A stretch of 53,846 nucleotides of DNA, taken from the sequence record PP180005, one strand, 5' to 3'. Positions 24,577 through 53,695 of this stretch are shown here, piece after piece (positions within the stretch are counted from its first letter, which is position 1; the number at the start of each line of letters is the position of its first letter). The position numbers and the translations under genes were made by a program. Source of the DNA: Escherichia phage mEp554. The notes beneath the pieces are model-generated. The model made no database searches and was not told the origin of the DNA. It saw only the letters and a program-made list of their open reading frames with translations.

Positions 24577-24598
24577 CCCGGCCCCGTGCCGGGTTTTT
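24577..24598 (+). terminator. Rho-independent terminator about 30 nt downstream of the candidate late promoter (tR'-like)
   Basis: CCCGGC-CCCGT-GCCGGG hairpin followed by TTTTT. Confidence 0.6.
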
Positions 24599-24618
24599 GC
24601 TTTGTTGGAGGTAAATCT

Positions 24619-24819
24619 ATGTTCGACAGAATACGGGAGGCGTGTGCGTATGTGACTGGTGCAGTAACCGCTTTTTTCGGTGCTATAACCATCAATGACG
24701 TCGCTGTTTTCGTTGGTATCTTATCAACCATAGGCACATTTGCCGTTAACTATTACTTTAAATCACAGGAGAACAAGCGAGCGCAAGAGGAACACGACGC
24801 GCGAATGGGGAATAAGTAA
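24619..24819 (+). CDS. Holin (pinholin-like, two TM segments)
   Basis: 67 aa; GGAGG SD; resembles phage 21 S-type pinholin architecture; precedes SAR endolysin. Confidence 0.7.
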   Translation: MFDRIREACAYVTGAVTAFFGAITINDVAVFVGILSTIGTFAVNYYFKSQENKRAQEEHDARMGNK

Positions 24820-25311
24820 ATGATTAGCCAATCGCTGAAAAACAAGATTGTTGCTGCGGCGGCTGGTGGTGCAATCGCTATTGCGGCGGTGATGATTAAG
24901 CCATTAGAGGGCGTGGAATACGATCCATATCGTGATGTTGTTGGCGTATGGACTGTTTGCTACGGTAACACCGGAAAAGACATCATGCTTGGGAAGACTT
25001 ACACGCAATCAGAATGCGATGCTTTGCTGAACAAAGATCTACACAAAACCGCAAAAGCGATTGACCCATATATCAAAGTCGAAATATCAGATTTTACCCG
25101 CGCTGCACTTTATTCCTTCGCCTATAACGTAGGCGCAACCAACTTCAAAACATCAACCTTATTAAAGCTACTCAATGACGGCAAGAAATCGGAAGCGTGC
25201 GCACAGCTTAAACGCTGGGTATACGCTGGCGGTAGGAAGTGGCAAGGCCTGGTAAACCGCCGCGATGTTGAATATGCCGTTTGCGAATGGGGGGAAACGT
25301 GGACAAGGTGA
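24820..25311 (+). CDS. SAR endolysin (GH24 lysozyme, phage 21 R-like)
   Basis: N-terminal weakly hydrophobic [21 protein letters not shown] segment; [34 protein letters not shown] lysozyme core. Confidence 0.85.
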
Positions 25312-25769
25312 AGGCGTTAATTATCGCCGCTGTTGTTTGCATTATTGCCAGCCTTACCGCCGTAACGTGCCATTACCAGAGTGAGGCGACAAGGTTACAG
25401 GAAGAGTTAACGACCACGCAAGGCGCACTGAAAACAGCAAGTAACACTATTCAGCAGATGAAGGAGCGAAACGCCGAACTGTCAAAACTTGATAAGAGGT
25501 ATCACGATGAGATTAAAGCTATCAGATCTGACATTGCCGATCTGCGCACTGGTATTGATAACGGCACTATCAGGCTGCGCGTCAACGCAATACCCGTGCG
25601 AGTGTCCGACCCCGCAGGAACCGCCAGCGCCATTAATGGAGCCTCCTGTAGACTCACTCCCGACGCTGAATCGGCTTATCTATCCCTCAGAGAACAACTA
25701 AAAGAGAAAGACGCGAAGATAACCGCGCTTCAGGGATACATCAAAACGCAGTGCTTACGCAAAGAATAA
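25287..25769 (+). CDS. Inner-membrane spanin Rz-like
   Basis: N-terminal [15 protein letters not shown] then coiled-coil; overlaps endolysin 3' end; start uncertain (25281-25308). Confidence 0.7.
25507..25701 (+). CDS. Outer-membrane lipoprotein spanin Rz1-like, embedded in Rz in +1 frame
   Basis: Lipobox LSGC after signal segment; proline-rich [14 protein letters not shown]. Confidence 0.65.
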   Translation: MRLKLSDLTLPICALVLITALSGCASTQYPCECPTPQEPPAPLMEPPVDSLPTLNRLIYPSENN

Positions 25770-45224: not shown

Positions 45225-48200
45225 ATGAGTAGCGGCGGCGGCAAAGCCAAAACACCAACATTATTAAACGATAACCTGTATCATAAACAGTTTTATCGTG
45301 TTTTAGACATTCTCAGCGAGGGGCCGATATACGGACCTGTAAACCAGAAAGCGCCATTAAACAGCGTAATGCTTAATGACACGCCTATCACTGACGCCAA
45401 CGGTAATACATCAGTCCCCGGCGTTAGCGTGGCGTGGCGCAATGGTACTGCTGACCAGTCACCAATCAACGGCTTCAACGCCATTGAATCAACCGTTATT
45501 GTCAACGCAAAAGTAACTCACGATACGCCAATAATCAGGACCGTTTCAGATCCAAACGTTAACCGCGTAAGGCTGAATCTTGGCGTTGATTCTCTGGTTC
45601 AGTCAGATGATAAGGGCAATCAATACAATACATCAGTTACGTTGATGGTTGACGTTAAGCCTTCATCTTCAACAACGTGGTCACTGGTTAAGGATATTCA
45701 CATTGGCCCGGGTAAGCAAAGCGGCGAGTACCTCGAAGCGCACATCATCAAAGCACCGGATGAAAAACCGTTTGACATTCGCGTTCGTCGCGTAACGCCG
45801 GACAGCACTGGCGATCTACTTCACAATGATACCAGGTGGAGCAGTTACAGCGAGATAATCGACGATAATTTGTCTTATCCTCATACCGCTGTAGCAGGCG
45901 CGGTAATTGACCACGATCAGTATACTGACACGCCGACACGTACTTATCACATGCGCGGCCTTATTGTTGACGTGCCTGATAACTACGACCCGGAAACGCG
46001 CACGTACTCAGGTTTATGGCTTGGTGGCTTTAAAAAGGCGTACACCAACAACCCTGCGTGGCTTTTCCGGTATCTGGTTAAAAATGAACGCTTCGGGCTT
46101 GCCCGCCACGCTGGTTACATCGACGTTGATGACGGCGCACTGTATACGCTTTCTCAATACTGCGACCAGTTGGTAAACGACGGTTACGGCGGCCTTGAAC
46201 CACGCATGACGCTTAACGCTTACATCACGGAGCAAATGAGCGCCCGCGACTTGCTGGATAACATTGCAGGCATGTTCCGTGGTATCGCATTATGGGACGG
46301 GCAGCGCCTTACGGTGATGATTGATGCACCGCAGGATCCAATTGCCACCATCACAAATGCAAACGTTGTTGATGGTGCGTTTACTCGTTCAAGTATCGCC
46401 CGCGCAGAATCTTACAACGCCGTGATTGTGTCATGGACTGACCCGGAAAACGGTTGGGAACAATCAAAAGAATACGTGGCAGATGATGAACTGATCGCCC
46501 GCGATGGTTACAACGAAACCACGTTGGAGGCTTTCGGTTGCACGTCACGCGGGCAGGCGTACCGCGCTGGCAAATGGCTGATAGAAACAGCAAAACGCGA
46601 ACCCTCAAAATTCACGTTTAAAATGGCCCGTGACGCAATTCACTTCACACCAGGGGATATTATCGAGATACTCGACAATAACCGCGCAGGCGCTCGTTTA
46701 GGCGGTCGCATAGTGGCGAATAATGGGAAAGTTATAACTGTAGACAAAGTTGATTCTGACCTGGTGGCGGCTGGTGACACTATCAGCTTACTGGACAGCG
46801 ACGGCAAGTTTAAAAAACATCAGATCACTGGGGTTAACGGAAACAATATTACCCTTGCGTCAGCGCCCGCATGGATTCGTAACGGAACCGTGTTTGCTGT
46901 ATCGACTGAATCTGCAAAACCCGTTCTGTGTCGAATTACCAGCGTAGCGGAAACCGAAAACAACAGCGTGTACACCATCGAGGCTGCACAGCACGATCCG
47001 CATAAACAGGCTGTAGTTGATGAAGGCGCAATCTTCGAGGTAAACAACGACACGCTTAATCACTTCCGCGTGCCGAACATTGAAAATCTGAAGGTGTTAA
47101 ACGTTGGTTCTGAGACAGTACAATGCCGCGCAACATGGGAAACACAGACGACAACGCATCGCCTGACCTTTGAAATACGCGTATATAACACCGAAGGCCG
47201 CATTGTGGCAACTTATGAAACCACGAATTACCGCTATGATTTTTATGGCCTCGACGCTGGCAGCTACACTATTGGTATTCGCGGGCGTAATGACACTGGC
47301 ATGAAGGGTGCGGAAAGTATTGTGGACCTGGTTATTGGTGCGCCAGCGGCCCCGATTGGAGTCAATTGGGTTCCTGGTGTCTTCCAGGCAACGGTATATC
47401 CGATCAGCAAAACAACCCTGACCACTGACACGGCATATGATTTCTACTACTCAGGTGAAAATCAGATCACTGACCCGTCAAAAGTAACCACGCTGGCACA
47501 GTTTACCGGGCGCGGCTACCAATGGACTTTTGGAGGCATGAACACGGGACACACCTATTACGTTTATGTGCGCACGCGTAATGCCTTTGGTGTGTCAGAC
47601 TTCGTTGAGGTATCAGGTAAACCAACTGAAAACTTCGATGAAATCAGCGACTACGTGATGAAGGATGTCATGGAGTCAGAACAGTTCAAAGATATGATTG
47701 GCGACATTAAAGATCTTGGCGACCGCGCTGATCTTATCGAAAGCGCTACAAATGACCTGAAAAACGCTACTGACAACCTCAAAACTGCAACTGATAACCT
47801 GACAAACATCACTGACGATTTGAGGGTTGAAACTGACAACCTGACAAACATCACTGACGAATTGAGGACTGATACGGACGGCCTAATCACAGAAACAGGG
47901 GCCATAAAAGCTGACACAGACACACTGAAAAAAGAAACGGAAGATCTCTATAAAAAGGTTGAGGAAAACGCCGACGATATTGGACAGCATGAGGCAAGAA
48001 TAGATTCTCTTGAGGTATCTAGCGAAAAAGTTGGCAGTGAACTGGCGCAAGCAAAAGCAAGCCTGCAAAACGCGTCATTGGCGCTTATCAACAACTCCCT
48101 TGCTCAGACCAACACGCGGGTTACTCTCACTGCACAGTACAAGAAAGGCAGGACAGAGACGAAGGCTGAAATTGACCGCATCGACAACGTTATTGCTGAA

Positions 48201-50711
48201 GAGAAAAAGGCTACAGCGGAATCACTGGAAACCATCACAGCAGAAATGAACACGATGGATTCTAATCTTAAGGGTCAGATCTCCAACGTGGAACGCGCAG
48301 TGGCTGACGAATCAAGCGCCCGCGCTGAAGCAATCAACGGCGTTAACGCATCAATAAGCAATCTCGACAAGAAAACCGACGCCAGCGTCAATAGACTTGA
48401 TCAGGCCATCGCAGACGAAACGAACGCCCGCACACAGGCAGTCAGTGACGTTAACGCGAGTGTCTCATCGCTAGACAAGAAAACTGACGCCAGCGTGAAA
48501 CGCCTGGATCAAGCAATAGCAGACGAAACCAGCGCAAGAACTGAAGCCATCAGCGGTGTGAATGCGTCAATTTCCACGCTTGATAGCAAGGTAACAAGCA
48601 ATGTAACGCGCATAGATAAATCTATCGCCGACGAAACGAAGGCCCGCACTGACGCAATCAGCGGGGTCAAAGCAAGTATTGACACACTTGAAGGTAACAC
48701 CAATTCAGAAGTTAAACGCCTTGATCAGTCGATTGCCGACGAGGCCAGCGCCCGCGCCCAGGCTGTGAGCGATGTTAAAGCATCAATAAGCAACCTTGAA
48801 AGCAAAACTGACGCCAGCGTTTCACGTCTCGACAAGGCAATTGCAGACGAAACACAGGCAAGAAGCGCTGCAATAACAGATGTTAAGGCTGATTTGACAA
48901 CGCTTGAAAACAGCACAAACGCCAGCGTTAAACGTTTGGATCAGGCTATTGCAGACGAATCAAGCGCCCGCGCTGAAGCAATCTCAGGCATTAACGCGGA
49001 GATCGGCAGCATTGAAAATAGCGTTGACAAAAACAGCGATGATATAAATCAGACAAAAGCAAGCCTGCAAAACGCATCTATTGCTCTGATTAACAACTCA
49101 ATCGCTCAAACCAACACGCGTGTTACGCTTACGGCCCAATACAAGAAAGGACGCAAAGAAACCAACGCGCAAATTGACCGTATTGACAATGTTATCGCAG
49201 AAGAGAAAAAGGCTACAGCCGAATCAATTGGCGTGGTAAAAGCATCGATCACGGATCTTGATAAGAAAACCGATGCCAGCGTTTCGCGTCTCGATAAAGC
49301 AATTGCAGACGAAACCAACGCACGCAGCCAGGCGGTGAGCGACGTTAACGCAAGCATTTCAGCGCTCGACAAGAAAACCGATGCCAGCGTTAAGCGTCTG
49401 GATCAAGCTATTGCAAATGAAACCAGCGCACGCAGCGAGGCAATCAGCGGCGTGAATGCAAGCATTAACACCCTTGAAAGCAACACCGAATCCGAAGTTA
49501 GCAGACTGGACCAGGCAATTGCTGACGAGGCCAGCGCCAGAGCGCAAGCCATCAGTGGTGTGAATGCGTCAATTTCAACCCTTGATGGCAAGGTTACAAG
49601 CAACGTGACCCGCATCGACAAAGCCATTGCAGACGAAACGAAGGCACGCACAGACGCAATCAGTAGCCTCAATTCATCGCTTACCAGTACGATTAACTCG
49701 AAGGTGTCTGAGGTATCAACGGCGCTTTCTACACATGAAGCATCAAGCGCGGAAAAATTCGGCCAGATCTCAGCGTCTTTCGAATCTGTAAACTCAAGTA
49801 TTACAGAATGGTCGCAGGCTATGGCAACGGCTGACGAGGCATTGTCAACCAAAATTGATCAGTTAACAGTAACCGTTAACGGTAACAAAACGGCGATCGA
49901 GACGACATCGAACGCGCTAACCGATTTCAAGGGTAACGTTGATGCGTCGTATTCCATCAAGCTGGCAACCGATAACAACGGCATGAAGTACGCTACAGGT
50001 ATGTCGCTTGGCCTGACTGGTAACGGTACAAACTTTCAATCGCAGTGTATTTTCCTTGTTGACCGCTTCGTGTTAATGACAGCAGCAAACGGCACATATA
50101 CAACGCCTTTCTATATGTCTAATGGTGCAATGTATGTGAAAGAAGCGTTTATTAAAAACGCATCAATAGGAGAAGCCAAAATTGCAAACGCTGCAATCAC
50201 ATCAGCCAAAATCGCACAGCAAATACAGTCAACAGAATTTGTTAAAAACTCAAAAGGCTGGATGATTAACAAAGATGGGTGGGCTGAGTTCAATAGCGTT
50301 ACGGTGAGGGGTACTGTGTATGCTACGGACGGTAAGTTCGCCGGTTCACTTGAGGCGAAAACCTTTATCGGTGATGTTGCAAATATGTATACAGGAGGTG
50401 ACGTTAGCAGGTTAAATGATGGCGTACTGGAAAAAACAATTACATACAACGATACATCTAACGCAGCGTACAGACGACACATCTGCGTTATGGCAAACGT
50501 TAAAGGTTTTGGTGGCTGTACAATAACTATCGGAAGTTCAGAAAAATCCCTTTCTATGAGTGGAGACGAACGCCTTGTCATGCATTCAGCGGCAATAACT
50601 ACCAGTGGCGTTACAGTTAAAATTAAGGTATCCGCTCAAAATGGTAGGGGTGCATATATAAATTCGCCGACCGTCATTGTGTCGCGCGGTTCTGGTTCAT
50701 TCTCAGGATAA
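45225..50711 (+). CDS. Host specificity protein J-like tail tip / central fibre (1828 aa) with internal repeat expansion
   Basis: Lambda J-like N-terminal 800 aa; long coiled-coil repeat stalk; AGGAG SD. Confidence 0.9.
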   Translation: MSSGGGKAKTPTLLNDNLYHKQFYRVLDILSEGPIYGPVNQKAPLNSVMLNDTPITDANGNTSVPGVSVAWRNGTADQSPINGFNAIESTVIVNAKVTHDTPIIRTVSDPNVNRVRLNLGVDSLVQSDDKGNQYNTSVTLMVDVKPSSSTTWSLVKDIHIGPGKQSGEYLEAHIIKAPDEKPFDIRVRRVTPDSTGDLLHNDTRWSSYSEIIDDNLSYPHTAVAGAVIDHDQYTDTPTRTYHMRGLIVDVPDNYDPETRTYSGLWLGGFKKAYTNNPAWLFRYLVKNERFGLARHAGYIDVDDGALYTLSQYCDQLVNDGYGGLEPRMTLNAYITEQMSARDLLDNIAGMFRGIALWDGQRLTVMIDAPQDPIATITNANVVDGAFTRSSIARAESYNAVIVSWTDPENGWEQSKEYVADDELIARDGYNETTLEAFGCTSRGQAYRAGKWLIETAKREPSKFTFKMARDAIHFTPGDIIEILDNNRAGARLGGRIVANNGKVITVDKVDSDLVAAGDTISLLDSDGKFKKHQITGVNGNNITLASAPAWIRNGTVFAVSTESAKPVLCRITSVAETENNSVYTIEAAQHDPHKQAVVDEGAIFEVNNDTLNHFRVPNIENLKVLNVGSETVQCRATWETQTTTHRLTFEIRVYNTEGRIVATYETTNYRYDFYGLDAGSYTIGIRGRNDTGMKGAESIVDLVIGAPAAPIGVNWVPGVFQATVYPISKTTLTTDTAYDFYYSGENQITDPSKVTTLAQFTGRGYQWTFGGMNTGHTYYVYVRTRNAFGVSDFVEVSGKPTENFDEISDYVMKDVMESEQFKDMIGDIKDLGDRADLIESATNDLKNATDNLKTATDNLTNITDDLRVETDNLTNITDELRTDTDGLITETGAIKADTDTLKKETEDLYKKVEENADDIGQHEARIDSLEVSSEKVGSELAQAKASLQNASLALINNSLAQTNTRVTLTAQYKKGRTETKAEIDRIDNVIAEEKKATAESLETITAEMNTMDSNLKGQISNVERAVADESSARAEAINGVNASISNLDKKTDASVNRLDQAIADETNARTQAVSDVNASVSSLDKKTDASVKRLDQAIADETSARTEAISGVNASISTLDSKVTSNVTRIDKSIADETKARTDAISGVKASIDTLEGNTNSEVKRLDQSIADEASARAQAVSDVKASISNLESKTDASVSRLDKAIADETQARSAAITDVKADLTTLENSTNASVKRLDQAIADESSARAEAISGINAEIGSIENSVDKNSDDINQTKASLQNASIALINNSIAQTNTRVTLTAQYKKGRKETNAQIDRIDNVIAEEKKATAESIGVVKASITDLDKKTDASVSRLDKAIADETNARSQAVSDVNASISALDKKTDASVKRLDQAIANETSARSEAISGVNASINTLESNTESEVSRLDQAIADEASARAQAISGVNASISTLDGKVTSNVTRIDKAIADETKARTDAISSLNSSLTSTINSKVSEVSTALSTHEASSAEKFGQISASFESVNSSITEWSQAMATADEALSTKIDQLTVTVNGNKTAIETTSNALTDFKGNVDASYSIKLATDNNGMKYATGMSLGLTGNGTNFQSQCIFLVDRFVLMTAANGTYTTPFYMSNGAMYVKEAFIKNASIGEAKIANAAITSAKIAQQIQSTEFVKNSKGWMINKDGWAEFNSVTVRGTVYATDGKFAGSLEAKTFIGDVANMYTGGDVSRLNDGVLEKTITYNDTSNAAYRRHICVMANVKGFGGCTITIGSSEKSLSMSGDERLVMHSAAITTSGVTVKIKVSAQNGRGAYINSPTVIVSRGSGSFSG
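47750..49690 (+). repeat. Tandem repeats inside J: short TDNL-type repeats, then about twelve 96-bp units (DKKTDASVxRLDQAIADETxAR...) arranged as a duplicated block of about 1 kb
   Basis: Directly visible periodic DNA and protein repeats; linker QNAS(L/I)ALINNS(L/I)AQTNTRVTLTAQYKKGR occurs twice. Confidence 0.8.
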
Positions 50712-50719
50712 AAAAACAA

Positions 50720-50744
50720 CCCCGCTTCGCGCGGGGTTTTCTTT
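50720..50744. terminator. Bidirectional rho-independent terminator, copy 2 of duplicated module
   Basis: CCCCGC-TTCGC-GCGGGG hairpin plus T-run; follows J and the convergent lipoprotein gene. Confidence 0.65.
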
Positions 50745-50992
50745 TAGTAGTTGGCTACACAGTTCGACGGGCTACCGATGCGGCGCATATTGTGATCGAG
50801 TTCATGACACCATTGCCCAGTATACGGCAGTTTTTCAGTGTCATAGACAAGATGACCACTACCATCATAAACAATATCATGTGGAATTACTCCGCTATTT
50901 GGCAGGTTGTGCAATGCGGCCTCTTTGTCAACAGCACAGCCAGTAAGAGCAACAGCCGCAGCGAACAAAACCACTTTGAACACGTTTTTCAT
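50744..50992 (-). CDS. Small lipoprotein (82 aa), opposite-strand moron between J and side tail fibre
   Basis: MKNVFKVVLFAAAVALTGC lipoprotein signal with LTGC lipobox. Confidence 0.6.
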   Translation of the reverse strand: MKNVFKVVLFAAAVALTGCAVDKEAALHNLPNSGVIPHDIVYDGSGHLVYDTEKLPYTGQWCHELDHNMRRIGSPSNCVANY

Positions 50993-51169
50993 TTTTGAAT
51001 CCTCATTCTTGTTGGTTCATCCGGTTTATCCGGTGGCTTAAATATCCGACAAAACCACATTTCGTATATTGATATAAATCAACAAATACATTTTGTGTAA
51101 GCAGAAAATGCAACAAAGATCACAAAATGGTAGAATTATTCCGTTAATTAACATAATGGAGTCATTGCA

Positions 51170-53695
51170 ATGATTTATACGACTGGAACAATTGCCATCA
51201 ACGGCAATACTGTTACAGGCACGGGAACAAACTTTTCCGCGCCGCTTTCTCTCATTCGTGTAGGTTGCACGCTCATTGCCATCGGCAACCAGGTGCAGAT
51301 CTTTACAGTTACAGAAATTAAAAACGGTACTGAACTGTCAGTAACGCCAGCGGCTAACCCTGCGATCCCTGCCGGAACAAAATTTAGTATTCTGCTATCT
51401 GACTCGATCTCAGTTGATGGGCTTGCTCAGGATGTAGCCGAAACTCTGCGTTACTACCAGGGCAAGGAAACAGAGATTGCAACAGCCGTTGAATGGTGGA
51501 ACGAGTTCGGCGGTGATGGTCAGATGGAACAACTTCTTGCCGACATTCGCGCAGAAACAGCGCAATCAACCGCCAATGCTCAAAAAACAGAATCAGACAA
51601 AAACGCGGCAGCAGCATCAAAAACGGCAGCAGCAAACTCAGCCACAGCAGCAAAAGCGTCACAGGATGCAGCAAAAGCCAGCGAAACGTCAGCAAGCAAC
51701 AGCAAAACGGCGGCGGCTACCAGCGAAACCAATGCGGCAAAATCAGCAGCCGATGCGCTTAACTATCGCAACCAGGCGCAGGGCATTGTGGGGACTGATA
51801 TAGGTTTGGGTGCAAATCGCCGCGACTGGCCTGACTGTAACGATCCGACAGGATATATAGGTTTTTGCCGTGCCGAAGCGTCAACAGCAAAAAACTTTCC
51901 GTCGATTGCATCAGGAGAGCTTTACCTTGTTGGTTGGTTGGCGCGCGGTGACGGTGCAACTATTAACGGCTGTTTCGTTGGTACTGTTACCCGTTCACTG
52001 TATACCTACAGCTATAACAACGCAGACAAATCAGTTGCGTGGACGCGTCACGCAAGAAAAGACGAAGTAGATCGCTTTTCTCAAATAGGTAGCGACCAGA
52101 CCCGTATTTACGCTGGCAACGGTAAAACATATTTAGAAATTGGCAACGATCGTGCATGGGGTGTTTATAATGGCGAGACTGGTCAATGGAAACCGTTAGA
52201 TCTTGCGCAAGGCGGTACATCTGGACGTAATTCAGGACAGGCGCGTACAAACCTTGAGGTTATGCACGAGAAAAAATCAGCTCTCAATTCCACTAATATT
52301 AATACGCTCACTGGTGAGTATTCTGGTTTTTATTACCAGGCATCAAATGTAGGCGCTACGGCAGAGTTAGGTTATCCAGTAGCAGGCGCGGGAGCATTAC
52401 TTGTTATAAAAAACGGCGCAAATAGTGCATCAGGATGTACGCAGCTCTATTTCCCTTACAATGCTGTAAATGGCGCATTTTATATGCGCCAATATATCCT
52501 TCAATCTTCCTCTGCTGGCTGGGAGTGGACTTCATGGAAAAAATTTCAGTCACTTGATTTTGCTGATAGCCCACAATTTGCCAATCTCAATCTTGTAATT
52601 TCTTCGGATAATGAAACCACTAACGGAGGTATACTGCAAAGCATACTCAACGGTACAACAGGAGCGCAAAGAGCCAGAACGCGCATTTACACCGAGTTTA
52701 GGGGTGATGGTAAGGCGTGGGCAACAACTCATCTACAGAGTGGCAGCAGTAATAAATATGCAGGATTGAGCGAAGACGGAGATTTTGCTTTAAGTACAGG
52801 TGATTTTGTCGCCAGAAGTGCACGATTATCATCAAACGTAAGCAATCCATTAACTTTGACGAGCGCACACCCAACAATTAAATTTGATGAGACTGACAGA
52901 CCTGAAGGGTCGCCGGACTACGCTTTTATCTGTGATGGTGGGAACTGGCGTATTGAAAGAGATCATTGGGATACATCAAAAGCCAAAGATTGCATCTCAT
53001 ATAGTTACAGCACACAAGAAATCAAAGTACCAAATCTGTCGACTCAAAATATTGCCATTCATGGAGGCAAAAGTTCCGGCGCTGGTACACTCCGGATTGA
53101 AAGTCAAAAAAGTTCAGACGAAGGGATGTATATTCGGGCATGGGGTAACGGTACGGATCGCTTGTCTGTTCTGGAGGTATCACTAGACTCAGGATTCCTA
53201 TTCTATGCCCAAAAAGTCGCTGACGGAAGCAAGGTACTAAGGGTTAACGGTTCAGTAACATGCACAACAGTTAACCAGACTTCAGATCGCGACCTAAAAG
53301 ACAACATTCAGGTTATAGGTGACGCTACTGAAGCAATCCGTAAAATGAACGGGTACACTTATACCCTTAAGGAAAACGGCCTGCCTTACGCTGGCGTTAT
53401 CGCTCAGGAGGTCATGGAGGCGCTGCCGGAAGCTGTTGGATCGTTCACCCATTACGGTGAAGAATTGCAGGGACCGACCGTTGACGGACGCGAGCTACGC
53501 GAAGAAACGCGTTATCTCAATGTTGACTACGCCGCAGTGACTGGTTTACTTGTCCAGGTGGCACGCGAAACAGATAACCGCGTAACCGAACTGGAAGAGG
53601 AAAACGCCATCCTACGCGCTAACATTGCTGAAATGGATGAGCGTATCGCAAAACTTGAAGCGCTTGTCAGTAAGTTGACAGAAGGCGAAAAATAA
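51170..53695 (+). CDS. Side tail fibre protein with C-terminal intramolecular chaperone (S74-type) domain
   Basis: Ala/Ser/Thr-rich lambda Stf-like N-terminal repeats; C-terminal SDRDLKDNI...NGYTYTLKENGLPYAGVIAQEV...coiled coil. Confidence 0.85.
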   Translation: MIYTTGTIAINGNTVTGTGTNFSAPLSLIRVGCTLIAIGNQVQIFTVTEIKNGTELSVTPAANPAIPAGTKFSILLSDSISVDGLAQDVAETLRYYQGKETEIATAVEWWNEFGGDGQMEQLLADIRAETAQSTANAQKTESDKNAAAASKTAAANSATAAKASQDAAKASETSASNSKTAAATSETNAAKSAADALNYRNQAQGIVGTDIGLGANRRDWPDCNDPTGYIGFCRAEASTAKNFPSIASGELYLVGWLARGDGATINGCFVGTVTRSLYTYSYNNADKSVAWTRHARKDEVDRFSQIGSDQTRIYAGNGKTYLEIGNDRAWGVYNGETGQWKPLDLAQGGTSGRNSGQARTNLEVMHEKKSALNSTNINTLTGEYSGFYYQASNVGATAELGYPVAGAGALLVIKNGANSASGCTQLYFPYNAVNGAFYMRQYILQSSSAGWEWTSWKKFQSLDFADSPQFANLNLVISSDNETTNGGILQSILNGTTGAQRARTRIYTEFRGDGKAWATTHLQSGSSNKYAGLSEDGDFALSTGDFVARSARLSSNVSNPLTLTSAHPTIKFDETDRPEGSPDYAFICDGGNWRIERDHWDTSKAKDCISYSYSTQEIKVPNLSTQNIAIHGGKSSGAGTLRIESQKSSDEGMYIRAWGNGTDRLSVLEVSLDSGFLFYAQKVADGSKVLRVNGSVTCTTVNQTSDRDLKDNIQVIGDATEAIRKMNGYTYTLKENGLPYAGVIAQEVMEALPEAVGSFTHYGEELQGPTVDGRELREETRYLNVDYAAVTGLLVQVARETDNRVTELEEENAILRANIAEMDERIAKLEALVSKLTEGEK

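Follow-up and report, generated by a model that had tools for sequence, protein, structure and literature searches.

What is a small gene on the opposite strand doing between the host-specificity gene J and the side tail fibre gene of Escherichia phage mEp554 (sequence record PP180005)? The question is raised by a sequence-only reading of the stretch of DNA analysed here, which is 53,846 nt long and is referred to below as the window. That reading had placed an open reading frame at 50744-50992, on the strand opposite to that of its neighbours, credited its 82-aa product with a lipoprotein signal and a lipobox, and proposed, by analogy with Cor and Llp, a superinfection-exclusion (SE) lipoprotein directed against the receptor recognised by J or by the fibre. 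The coordinates, the strand and the position between J and the fibre gene proved exact (Table 1). We consider it probable that the gene encodes a small outer-membrane lipoprotein which makes LamB, the receptor of the phage's own J tip, unusable for phages. The gene has already been described and a near-identical allele has already been tested; no new biology is added here.

Table 1. Features of the J-lipoprotein-fibre locus of mEp554 (positions of the window)
Feature	Position	Strand	Basis and remarks
J	45225..50711	+	1828 aa; Pfam GpJ domains and Phage_Tail_Tip
J C-terminal tip, last ~115 aa, presumed to bind LamB and to be the functional partner of the lipoprotein	50364..50711	+	DNA identity to CSP1/CSP1C
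Hairpin, candidate bidirectional terminator	50718..50738		Terminator scan of both strands
Lipoprotein gene, type-C Lpp of mEpimmI phages	50744..50992	-	82-aa precursor ORF, stop codon included
Mature lipoprotein	50747..50938	-	64 aa, 7.1 kDa, pI 5.6; Cys1 is the predicted lipid anchor
Codon of Cys19, predicted to be lipidated	50936-50938	-	Next codon after the signal peptide
Signal peptide, aa 1-18	50939..50992	-	Read from the sequence; ends in L-T-G of the lipobox
Divergent intergenic region, 177 bp	50993..51169		AT-rich (~33% GC); carries the Shine-Dalgarno sequence of the lipoprotein gene
Fibre gene	51170..53695	+	841 aa; Peptidase_S74 chaperone domain

Translated from its ATG start codon, the precursor reads MKNVFKVVLFAAAVALTGCAVDKEAALHNLPNSGVIPHDIVYDGSGHLVYDTEKLPYTGQWCHELDHNMRRIGSPSNCVANY. 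The lipoprotein signal and lipobox of the sequence-only reading were borne out: a basic n-region, MKNVFK (with K2 and K6), is followed by a hydrophobic h-region of nine residues, VVLFAAAVA, and by the lipobox LTGC, which contains Cys19 and has Ala at the +2 position. This alanine predicts sorting to the outer membrane. The mature part consists of a variable tether of ~11 residues and a conserved core with two more invariant cysteines (C62 and C78 of the precursor), which probably form a disulfide. A Shine-Dalgarno sequence, GAGG, lies at 51001-51004 on the minus strand, 8 nt ahead of the ATG.

A loose PROSITE-like lipobox pattern also matched ~10 other ORF positions among the 1561 start candidates in the window, hence the motif by itself is weak evidence. 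Among all these matches, only the ORF studied here and an o-spanin embedded in the lysis cassette look credible. Within the lipoprotein reading frame, substitutions fall on third codon positions in 13 of 14 cases in the comparison with phage mEp010 and in 18 of 23 in the comparison with phage MagusPhagus, and the ratios of synonymous to non-synonymous changes are 12:2 and 15:6, respectively; the gene is under strong purifying selection. The protein matches the PHROG family phrog_12984, annotated as 'lipoprotein', over residues 7-82 (E=1.1e-26), while Pfam, NCBIfam and PADLOC hold no family for it and gave only weak matches to the signal peptide. The third-position bias, the phrog_12984 match and the preservation of cysteines and motifs in homologues (see below) together indicate that the gene is real.

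The locus and 25 kb of the remaining window are collinear, at ~87-92% DNA identity, with the genomes of the mEpimmI temperate coliphages, represented in our comparison by mEp010, mEp013, mEp044, mEp021, mEp515 and MagusPhagus. The closest counterpart of the protein, gp116 of mEp010 (Lpp010), is identical at 80 of 82 residues. The sole differences are Q38H and V40I, and both positions vary naturally across the family alignment. Of 50,697 phage records searched by tblastn, 43 contain the family. Homologues from mEpimmI phages are 93-98% identical, and the others share ~59-77% identity over residues 31-82; the latter are carried by Seuratvirus (CAjan, Seurat, slur01, Bas21-24), Nonagvirus 9g, phages of the EP23/PNS1 type, Cronobacter phage CSP1 and an Enterobacter phage.

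The family has a narrow distribution. The database search yielded 25 homologue clusters at 90% identity, and an exhaustive HMM search of 1.84 billion representative proteins yielded ~3 genuine clusters at 50% identity. Homologues occur in 13 of 5426 complete E. coli genomes, where they are always chromosomal and annotated as 'hypothetical protein'. The exhaustive HMM search also returned nine stretches of a 4467-aa metagenomic repeat protein (P0028), which show a weak similarity to the core of the lipoprotein, D-G-x-G-x-L-V-x-D-T-E-K-L-P-x-T-G-Q-W (total E=1.8e-6). The repeats are of the form DANGDITSVTVPGEGTWTVDP (e.g. residues 1831-1859), and the match probably reflects a common beta-hairpin-like motif and not homology.

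The features expected of an exported lipoprotein have been kept within the family. Cys19, Cys62 and Cys78 are invariant among the 25 homologues, except for an arginine at position 62 in one singleton, and the motifs PNSGV.P, TGQW (TGQWC...RIGSPSNC) and S.NC..Y are conserved. The lipobox ends in [AG]C in all 23 aligned members, most of which also fit the strict pattern [LVI][ASTVI][GAS]C; two Salmonella members have AYGC. The residue at +2 is A, G or S, and never D. The constant avoidance of aspartate at +2, together with the two invariant extra cysteines, fits an oxidised, extracytoplasmic outer-membrane lipoprotein. Gene order is likewise conserved: J is followed by the lipoprotein gene on the opposite strand and then by the fibre gene in mEp010, mEp013, mEp044, CAjan, CSP1 and MagusPhagus, and also in a Salmonella prophage and in 44-kb siphophages.

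Phage lambda is the classical LamB phage. Negrete-Mendez et al. (2025) described four sequence types of lipoproteins in the mEpimmI phages, which they call non-lambdoid, and assigned mEp010, mEp013, mEp044 and mEp554 to type C (PMC11893012). All four fail completely on a lamB knockout. Expressed from an IPTG-inducible Ptac plasmid, Lpp010 excludes lambda, which had not been expected, as well as mEp010, mEp044 and mEp554; mEp013 and the OmpA-dependent phages mEp021 and mEp515 escape (PMC11893012). The converse specificity was also found, as Lpp021, a type-A lipoprotein associated with OmpA use, spares the LamB phages. The mEp554 lipoprotein was described in the same work as Lpp010 with Q38H and V40I (PMC11893012), and the protein analysed here carries exactly these two substitutions. 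By its sequence, it is a member of the type-C Lpp/PHROG 12984 family. The proposed role in superinfection exclusion is supported, since a protein that differs from it at 2 of 82 residues excludes LamB phages in a naive host (PMC11893012). As for the target, the receptor recognised by J or by the fibre, the data point to LamB, via the J tip.

An association with LamB is also seen outside the mEpimmI group. Maffei et al. (2021) described receptor-specific modules with cognate superinfection-exclusion proteins encoded directly downstream of gpJ in small siphoviruses (PMC8594841), and van den Berg et al. (2022) wrote of phages that target LamB, with Bas23 as an example, that they 'likely do have SE lipoproteins' at the gpJ locus (PMC9586334). 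According to the supplementary table of the BASEL collection, LamB is the terminal receptor of Bas21, Bas22, Bas23 and Bas24, and all four carry a homologue of the lipoprotein. No homologue from the LptD-using Queuovirinae Bas19, Bas20 and Bas25 was found among the tblastn matches. Within the BASEL collection, homologues are present only in LamB-using Queuovirinae.

A comparison of the J tips provides further information on the target. From 50364/50376 to 50845, the mEp554 sequence is ~90% identical at the DNA level to Cronobacter phages CSP1 and CSP1C. From the J tip, this CSP1-like block extends across the terminator into the lipoprotein gene, of which it covers the 3' third. As it ends at 50845, inside the lipoprotein ORF, the J tip and the lipoprotein have been exchanged together, with one recombination junction located within the ORF. 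The CSP1 lipoprotein itself has a Seurat-type N-terminus and an mEp-type C-terminal CVANY.

Over the last aligned residues, the J tip is identical to the CSP1 fibre tip at 71 of 77 positions (92%), but only ~27% identical to the tips of CAjan and MagusPhagus. It has no alignable similarity to the lambda J tip; the upstream stem alone can be aligned, with 19% identity. In MagusPhagus, a lipoprotein that is 93% identical is paired with a CAjan-type tip. One lipoprotein type is therefore found with at least two types of J tip and acts on a phage with a third (lambda), which indicates that it follows the host receptor and not a particular phage tip. The pairing of one lipoprotein with several tip types is expected if its target is LamB, and not a phage protein. 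The J tip of mEp013 is of the same type as those of the phages excluded by Lpp010.

The relationship of this protein to known exclusion lipoproteins is close in two cases. Lpp010 shares the lipobox and the terminator, and its gene likewise lies between J and the fibre gene, in the same orientation. The predicted SE lipoproteins of the Seuratvirus phages (Bas21-24, CAjan and Seurat), Nonagvirus 9g and EP23/PNS1-like phages are homologous (50-62% full-length identity, ~70-77% over aa 31-82) and share with the mEp554 lipoprotein both the gene order and the association with LamB. They differ in that their phages are virulent and mostly have another J-tip type, that the tether reads GNG.NTGK instead of AVDKEAALHNL, and that the signal peptide is ~3-5 residues shorter.

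With Llp of phage T5 (PDB 8A60, 7QJF) the similarity is of another kind. In outline the two work alike: Llp is a small (~6-7 kDa) lipoprotein encoded beside the gene of the receptor-binding protein, it disables the receptor of its own phage, and it contains an internal disulfide. The two invariant non-lipidated cysteines, the lack of Asp at +2 and the adjacency to the J tip may correspond to these traits here. However, Llp acts on FhuA, a TonB-dependent transporter whose plug it jams, whereas LamB has no plug. An hhalign comparison with Llp (its sequence was checked against PDB 8A60_B) gave a probability of 0.15%. A profile search of the PDB (E<=10) produced chance matches only (E>0.5); 8A60 and 7QJF were present in the database but were not returned. 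Cor (phages phi80, N15, T1 and mEp167; PHROG phrog_1119) is also a small lipoprotein, encoded among the tail genes, and keeps out phages that enter by the same receptor, but it acts on FhuA, whereas the exclusion published for Lpp010 concerns LamB-dependent phages. The phrog_1119 match was confined to residues 1-22, i.e. the signal peptide (E=0.24), and the mature domain showed no homology to Cor.

For the inactivation of a plug-less receptor, Rtp45 of phage Rtp (PDB 9RPS, deposited in 2025) offers the best precedent in terms of mechanism. It is a periplasmic lipoprotein of ~6 kDa with one disulfide, encoded at the same locus downstream of gpJ. Its beta-hairpin runs up the lumen of the LptDE barrel and displaces EL4; the target is LptD, not LamB. 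The PDB profile search, made on a 2026 copy in which the presence of 9RPS was not confirmed, returned no Rtp45-related chain. Nor did the exhaustive HMM search of the 1.84 billion representatives reveal any remote homologue through which the family could be connected with Cor, Llp or Rtp45. The likeness to Cor and Llp put forward by the sequence-only reading thus holds for position and, by analogy, for function, but does not extend to homology, given the Cor match restricted to the signal peptide and the hhalign result. Since homology to Cor or T5 Llp is not detectable, the protein is a functional analogue and belongs to neither family.

According to the mechanism that we propose, the precursor would be exported by the Sec system, lipidated at Cys19 and cleaved by signal peptidase II, and Ala at +2 would direct the product through the Lol pathway to the inner leaflet of the outer membrane. 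The short flexible tether would then hold the disulfide-stabilised core of ~50 residues against LamB, presumably in direct contact. LamB would be bound from the periplasm, possibly with insertion of a hairpin into the barrel, and the extracellular loops that bind the J tip would be changed or occluded. Incoming LamB phages would fail in irreversible adsorption or in triggering ejection, i.e. at the adsorption stage, and after lysis the progeny virions would not be wasted on LamB in debris. The virulent relatives probably profit through 'lytic conversion', in which the progeny are shielded from receptor-bearing debris. We infer that the lipoprotein is expressed from the prophage and that its action is 'receptor-blocking' in this sense.

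The two solved SE complexes, Llp on FhuA and Rtp45 on LptDE, provide, by analogy, structural examples of SE lipoproteins that reshape extracellular loops from the periplasm, and a periplasmic location may be taken from them as the default. It may be speculated that the conserved segment IVYDGSGHLVYDTEKLPYTGQW could form a hairpin that enters LamB. Structure predictions for SE lipoproteins were reportedly found unreliable in the Rtp45 paper. In our hands, AF2 models reached a mean pLDDT of 53.0 with the full-length alignment (23 sequences) and 53.7 with the mature-domain alignment (20 sequences), values too low for a fold search on the models to be meaningful.

The main rival explanation is a post-adsorption block, in which recognition of LamB remains intact and opening of the tail tip, insertion of the tape measure or passage of DNA through the periplasm and the inner membrane is hindered, much as by the Gram-positive lipoprotein Ltp or by HK97 gp15. 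A target in another virion component or at another step would easily explain how mEp013 escapes in spite of its need for LamB and its J tip of the same type. We nevertheless regard this explanation as unlikely, because lambda, which belongs to a different phage group, is also excluded, and because OmpA-dependent mEpimmI phages, whose remaining backbone is ~90% identical at the DNA level, are not. Moreover, in phage groups that are unrelated to one another the gene goes together with the J tip and with LamB use, and the residue at +2, an alanine, points to the outer and not the inner membrane. It is considerably harder to accept that the whole phenotype is an indirect effect of over-expression, in which the Ptac-driven lipoprotein causes envelope stress and lowers the amount of LamB, while the native gene has another role or none, e.g. 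as a moron like lom or bor. Envelope-stress small RNAs do repress lamB, all of the exclusion data come from IPTG-inducible plasmids, and the promoter scans revealed no native promoter (see below). Against this very improbable scenario stands the reciprocal specificity of the lipoproteins, as Lpp010 spares OmpA phages and Lpp021 spares LamB phages. In addition, mEp013 still plates, so functional LamB remains at the surface, and both purifying selection and the strict co-occurrence with LamB use in independent lineages argue for a receptor-specific role. A Bor/Lom-like moron role was rejected in view of the published exclusion phenotype.

A third alternative concerns topology only. The lipoprotein could be flipped to the outside of the cell and cover the loops of LamB, as TraT does with OmpA; this would be a topological variant of the explanation that we prefer, with the same function. 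Surface exposure has been raised as one possibility for SE lipoproteins whose receptors do not depend on TonB, with LptD as the example (van den Berg et al., PMC9586334); neither LamB nor LptD is known for allostery (PMC9586334), and a hairpin may not fit into the narrow channel of LamB. Still, Llp and Rtp45, the two SE lipoproteins for which complexes have been solved, are located in the periplasm, and the mEp554 sequence contains no recognisable surface-export signal. We regard the mask as improbable, if less so than an over-expression artefact.

Exclusion through LamB itself, the reading we prefer, has to accommodate mEp013. As this phage depends on LamB and is not excluded, LamB must stay on the surface in a form usable by at least one phage. 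This argues against simple occlusion or loss of LamB and favours an epitope-specific change. LamB has no plug and no known allostery, and van den Berg et al. asked how such SE lipoproteins act on a receptor without allostery (PMC9586334). We tentatively put forward, as a possibility on which we would not yet rely, that this plug-less trimeric porin is disabled by a mechanism unlike both solved cases, with only some of its phage-binding epitopes changed. A hairpin or extended segment might be threaded into the sugar channel from the periplasm, or the protein might act from the cell surface. A partial change of epitopes would account both for the exclusion of lambda and for the escape of mEp013, a close relative. 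If this were true, uptake of maltodextrins would probably be impaired too, and the lipoprotein would represent a third structural class of receptor-remodelling SE lipoproteins and a natural, genetically encoded inhibitor of LamB.

The mechanistic question posed by the family is how a 7-kDa lipoprotein blocks LamB for lambda and most mEpimmI phages, yet not for mEp013. With its solution, what has been learned from FhuA-Llp and LptDE-Rtp45 would be carried over to classical porins, and cross-resistance between LamB phages in cocktails and in gut lysogens would be easier to predict. For genome annotation, the combination of a lipobox with a location after J can be relied on to reveal receptor-specific exclusion genes.

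The regulation of the locus was also considered. The hairpin between J and the lipoprotein gene has a folding energy of -21.9 kcal/mol (z=-3.6, RNA fold) and is flanked by T-runs on both sides; to judge from these features, transcription of both genes, J on the plus strand and the lipoprotein gene on the minus strand, can be terminated at this hairpin. A Rho-independent terminator is annotated at the equivalent place in mEp010, mEp013 and mEp044. Rfam matches to the Leu and Trp leaders at this site (~19-20 bits, versus gathering scores of 50 and 41) are below threshold and merely reflect the terminator hairpin, and leader RNAs were rejected as candidates.

The intergenic region that separates the lipoprotein gene from the fibre gene is conserved in mEp010 and MagusPhagus, and the promoter of the lipoprotein gene would be expected within it. 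Standard and more permissive sigma-70 scans upstream of the lipoprotein gene found no convincing promoter, the best candidate being ATGACT-19 nt-AATAAT at 51165-51135. On the plus strand, an extended -10-like sequence, TGgTAGAAT, is present at 51128-51136, 34 nt ahead of the start codon of the fibre gene. Transcription of the fibre gene may begin at a promoter of its own; if it did not, it would depend on read-through of the J terminator, and the resulting RNA would be antisense to the lipoprotein gene. ORFs of 37-38 aa occur at 51003-51154 on the minus strand, within the AT-rich region, where PHANOTATE 'hypothetical proteins' of 114-129 nt are annotated in the relatives (mEp010_117, mEp013_105, mEp044_111 and MagusPhagus CDS0020). 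As genes these small ORFs are probably spurious, their annotated lengths varying among relatives, and the conserved DNA at 51003-51154 is more likely regulatory than coding.

Both genes that flank the lipoprotein gene show additional features. J is unusually long, with 1828 aa versus 1132 aa in lambda and 1478-1828 aa among the relatives. Between the conserved N-terminal GpJ domains (to ~aa 811) and Phage_Tail_Tip (aa 1557-1704) it contains an insert of ~700 aa, which is repeat-rich and coiled-coil-like. Tandem repeats are located at 47755-47858 and 49257-49522, with units of 108 bp (36 aa) and 21/42 bp; J repeats are mentioned in the mEpimmI paper (PMC11893012). In the fibre, the Peptidase_S74 intramolecular chaperone domain occupies aa 705-756, near the end of the protein, hence the C-terminus is probably self-cleaved. 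DNA similarity in the fibre gene ends at ~51452 for mEp044 and at ~51474 for mEp010, and continues through 51700 for mEp013, while the length of the fibre differs in mEp010 and MagusPhagus. Taken together, these differences suggest that the distal part of the fibre is variable between relatives.

The lysis cassette mentioned above spans 24586-25769 and contains ORFs for a 77-aa holin-like, a 163-aa lysozyme-like and a 162-aa Rz-like i-spanin protein. The second lipoprotein ORF of the window lies inside the Rz-like i-spanin ORF, at 25507-25701; its product has the lipobox LSGC, is proline-rich and has the appearance of an Rz1-type o-spanin.
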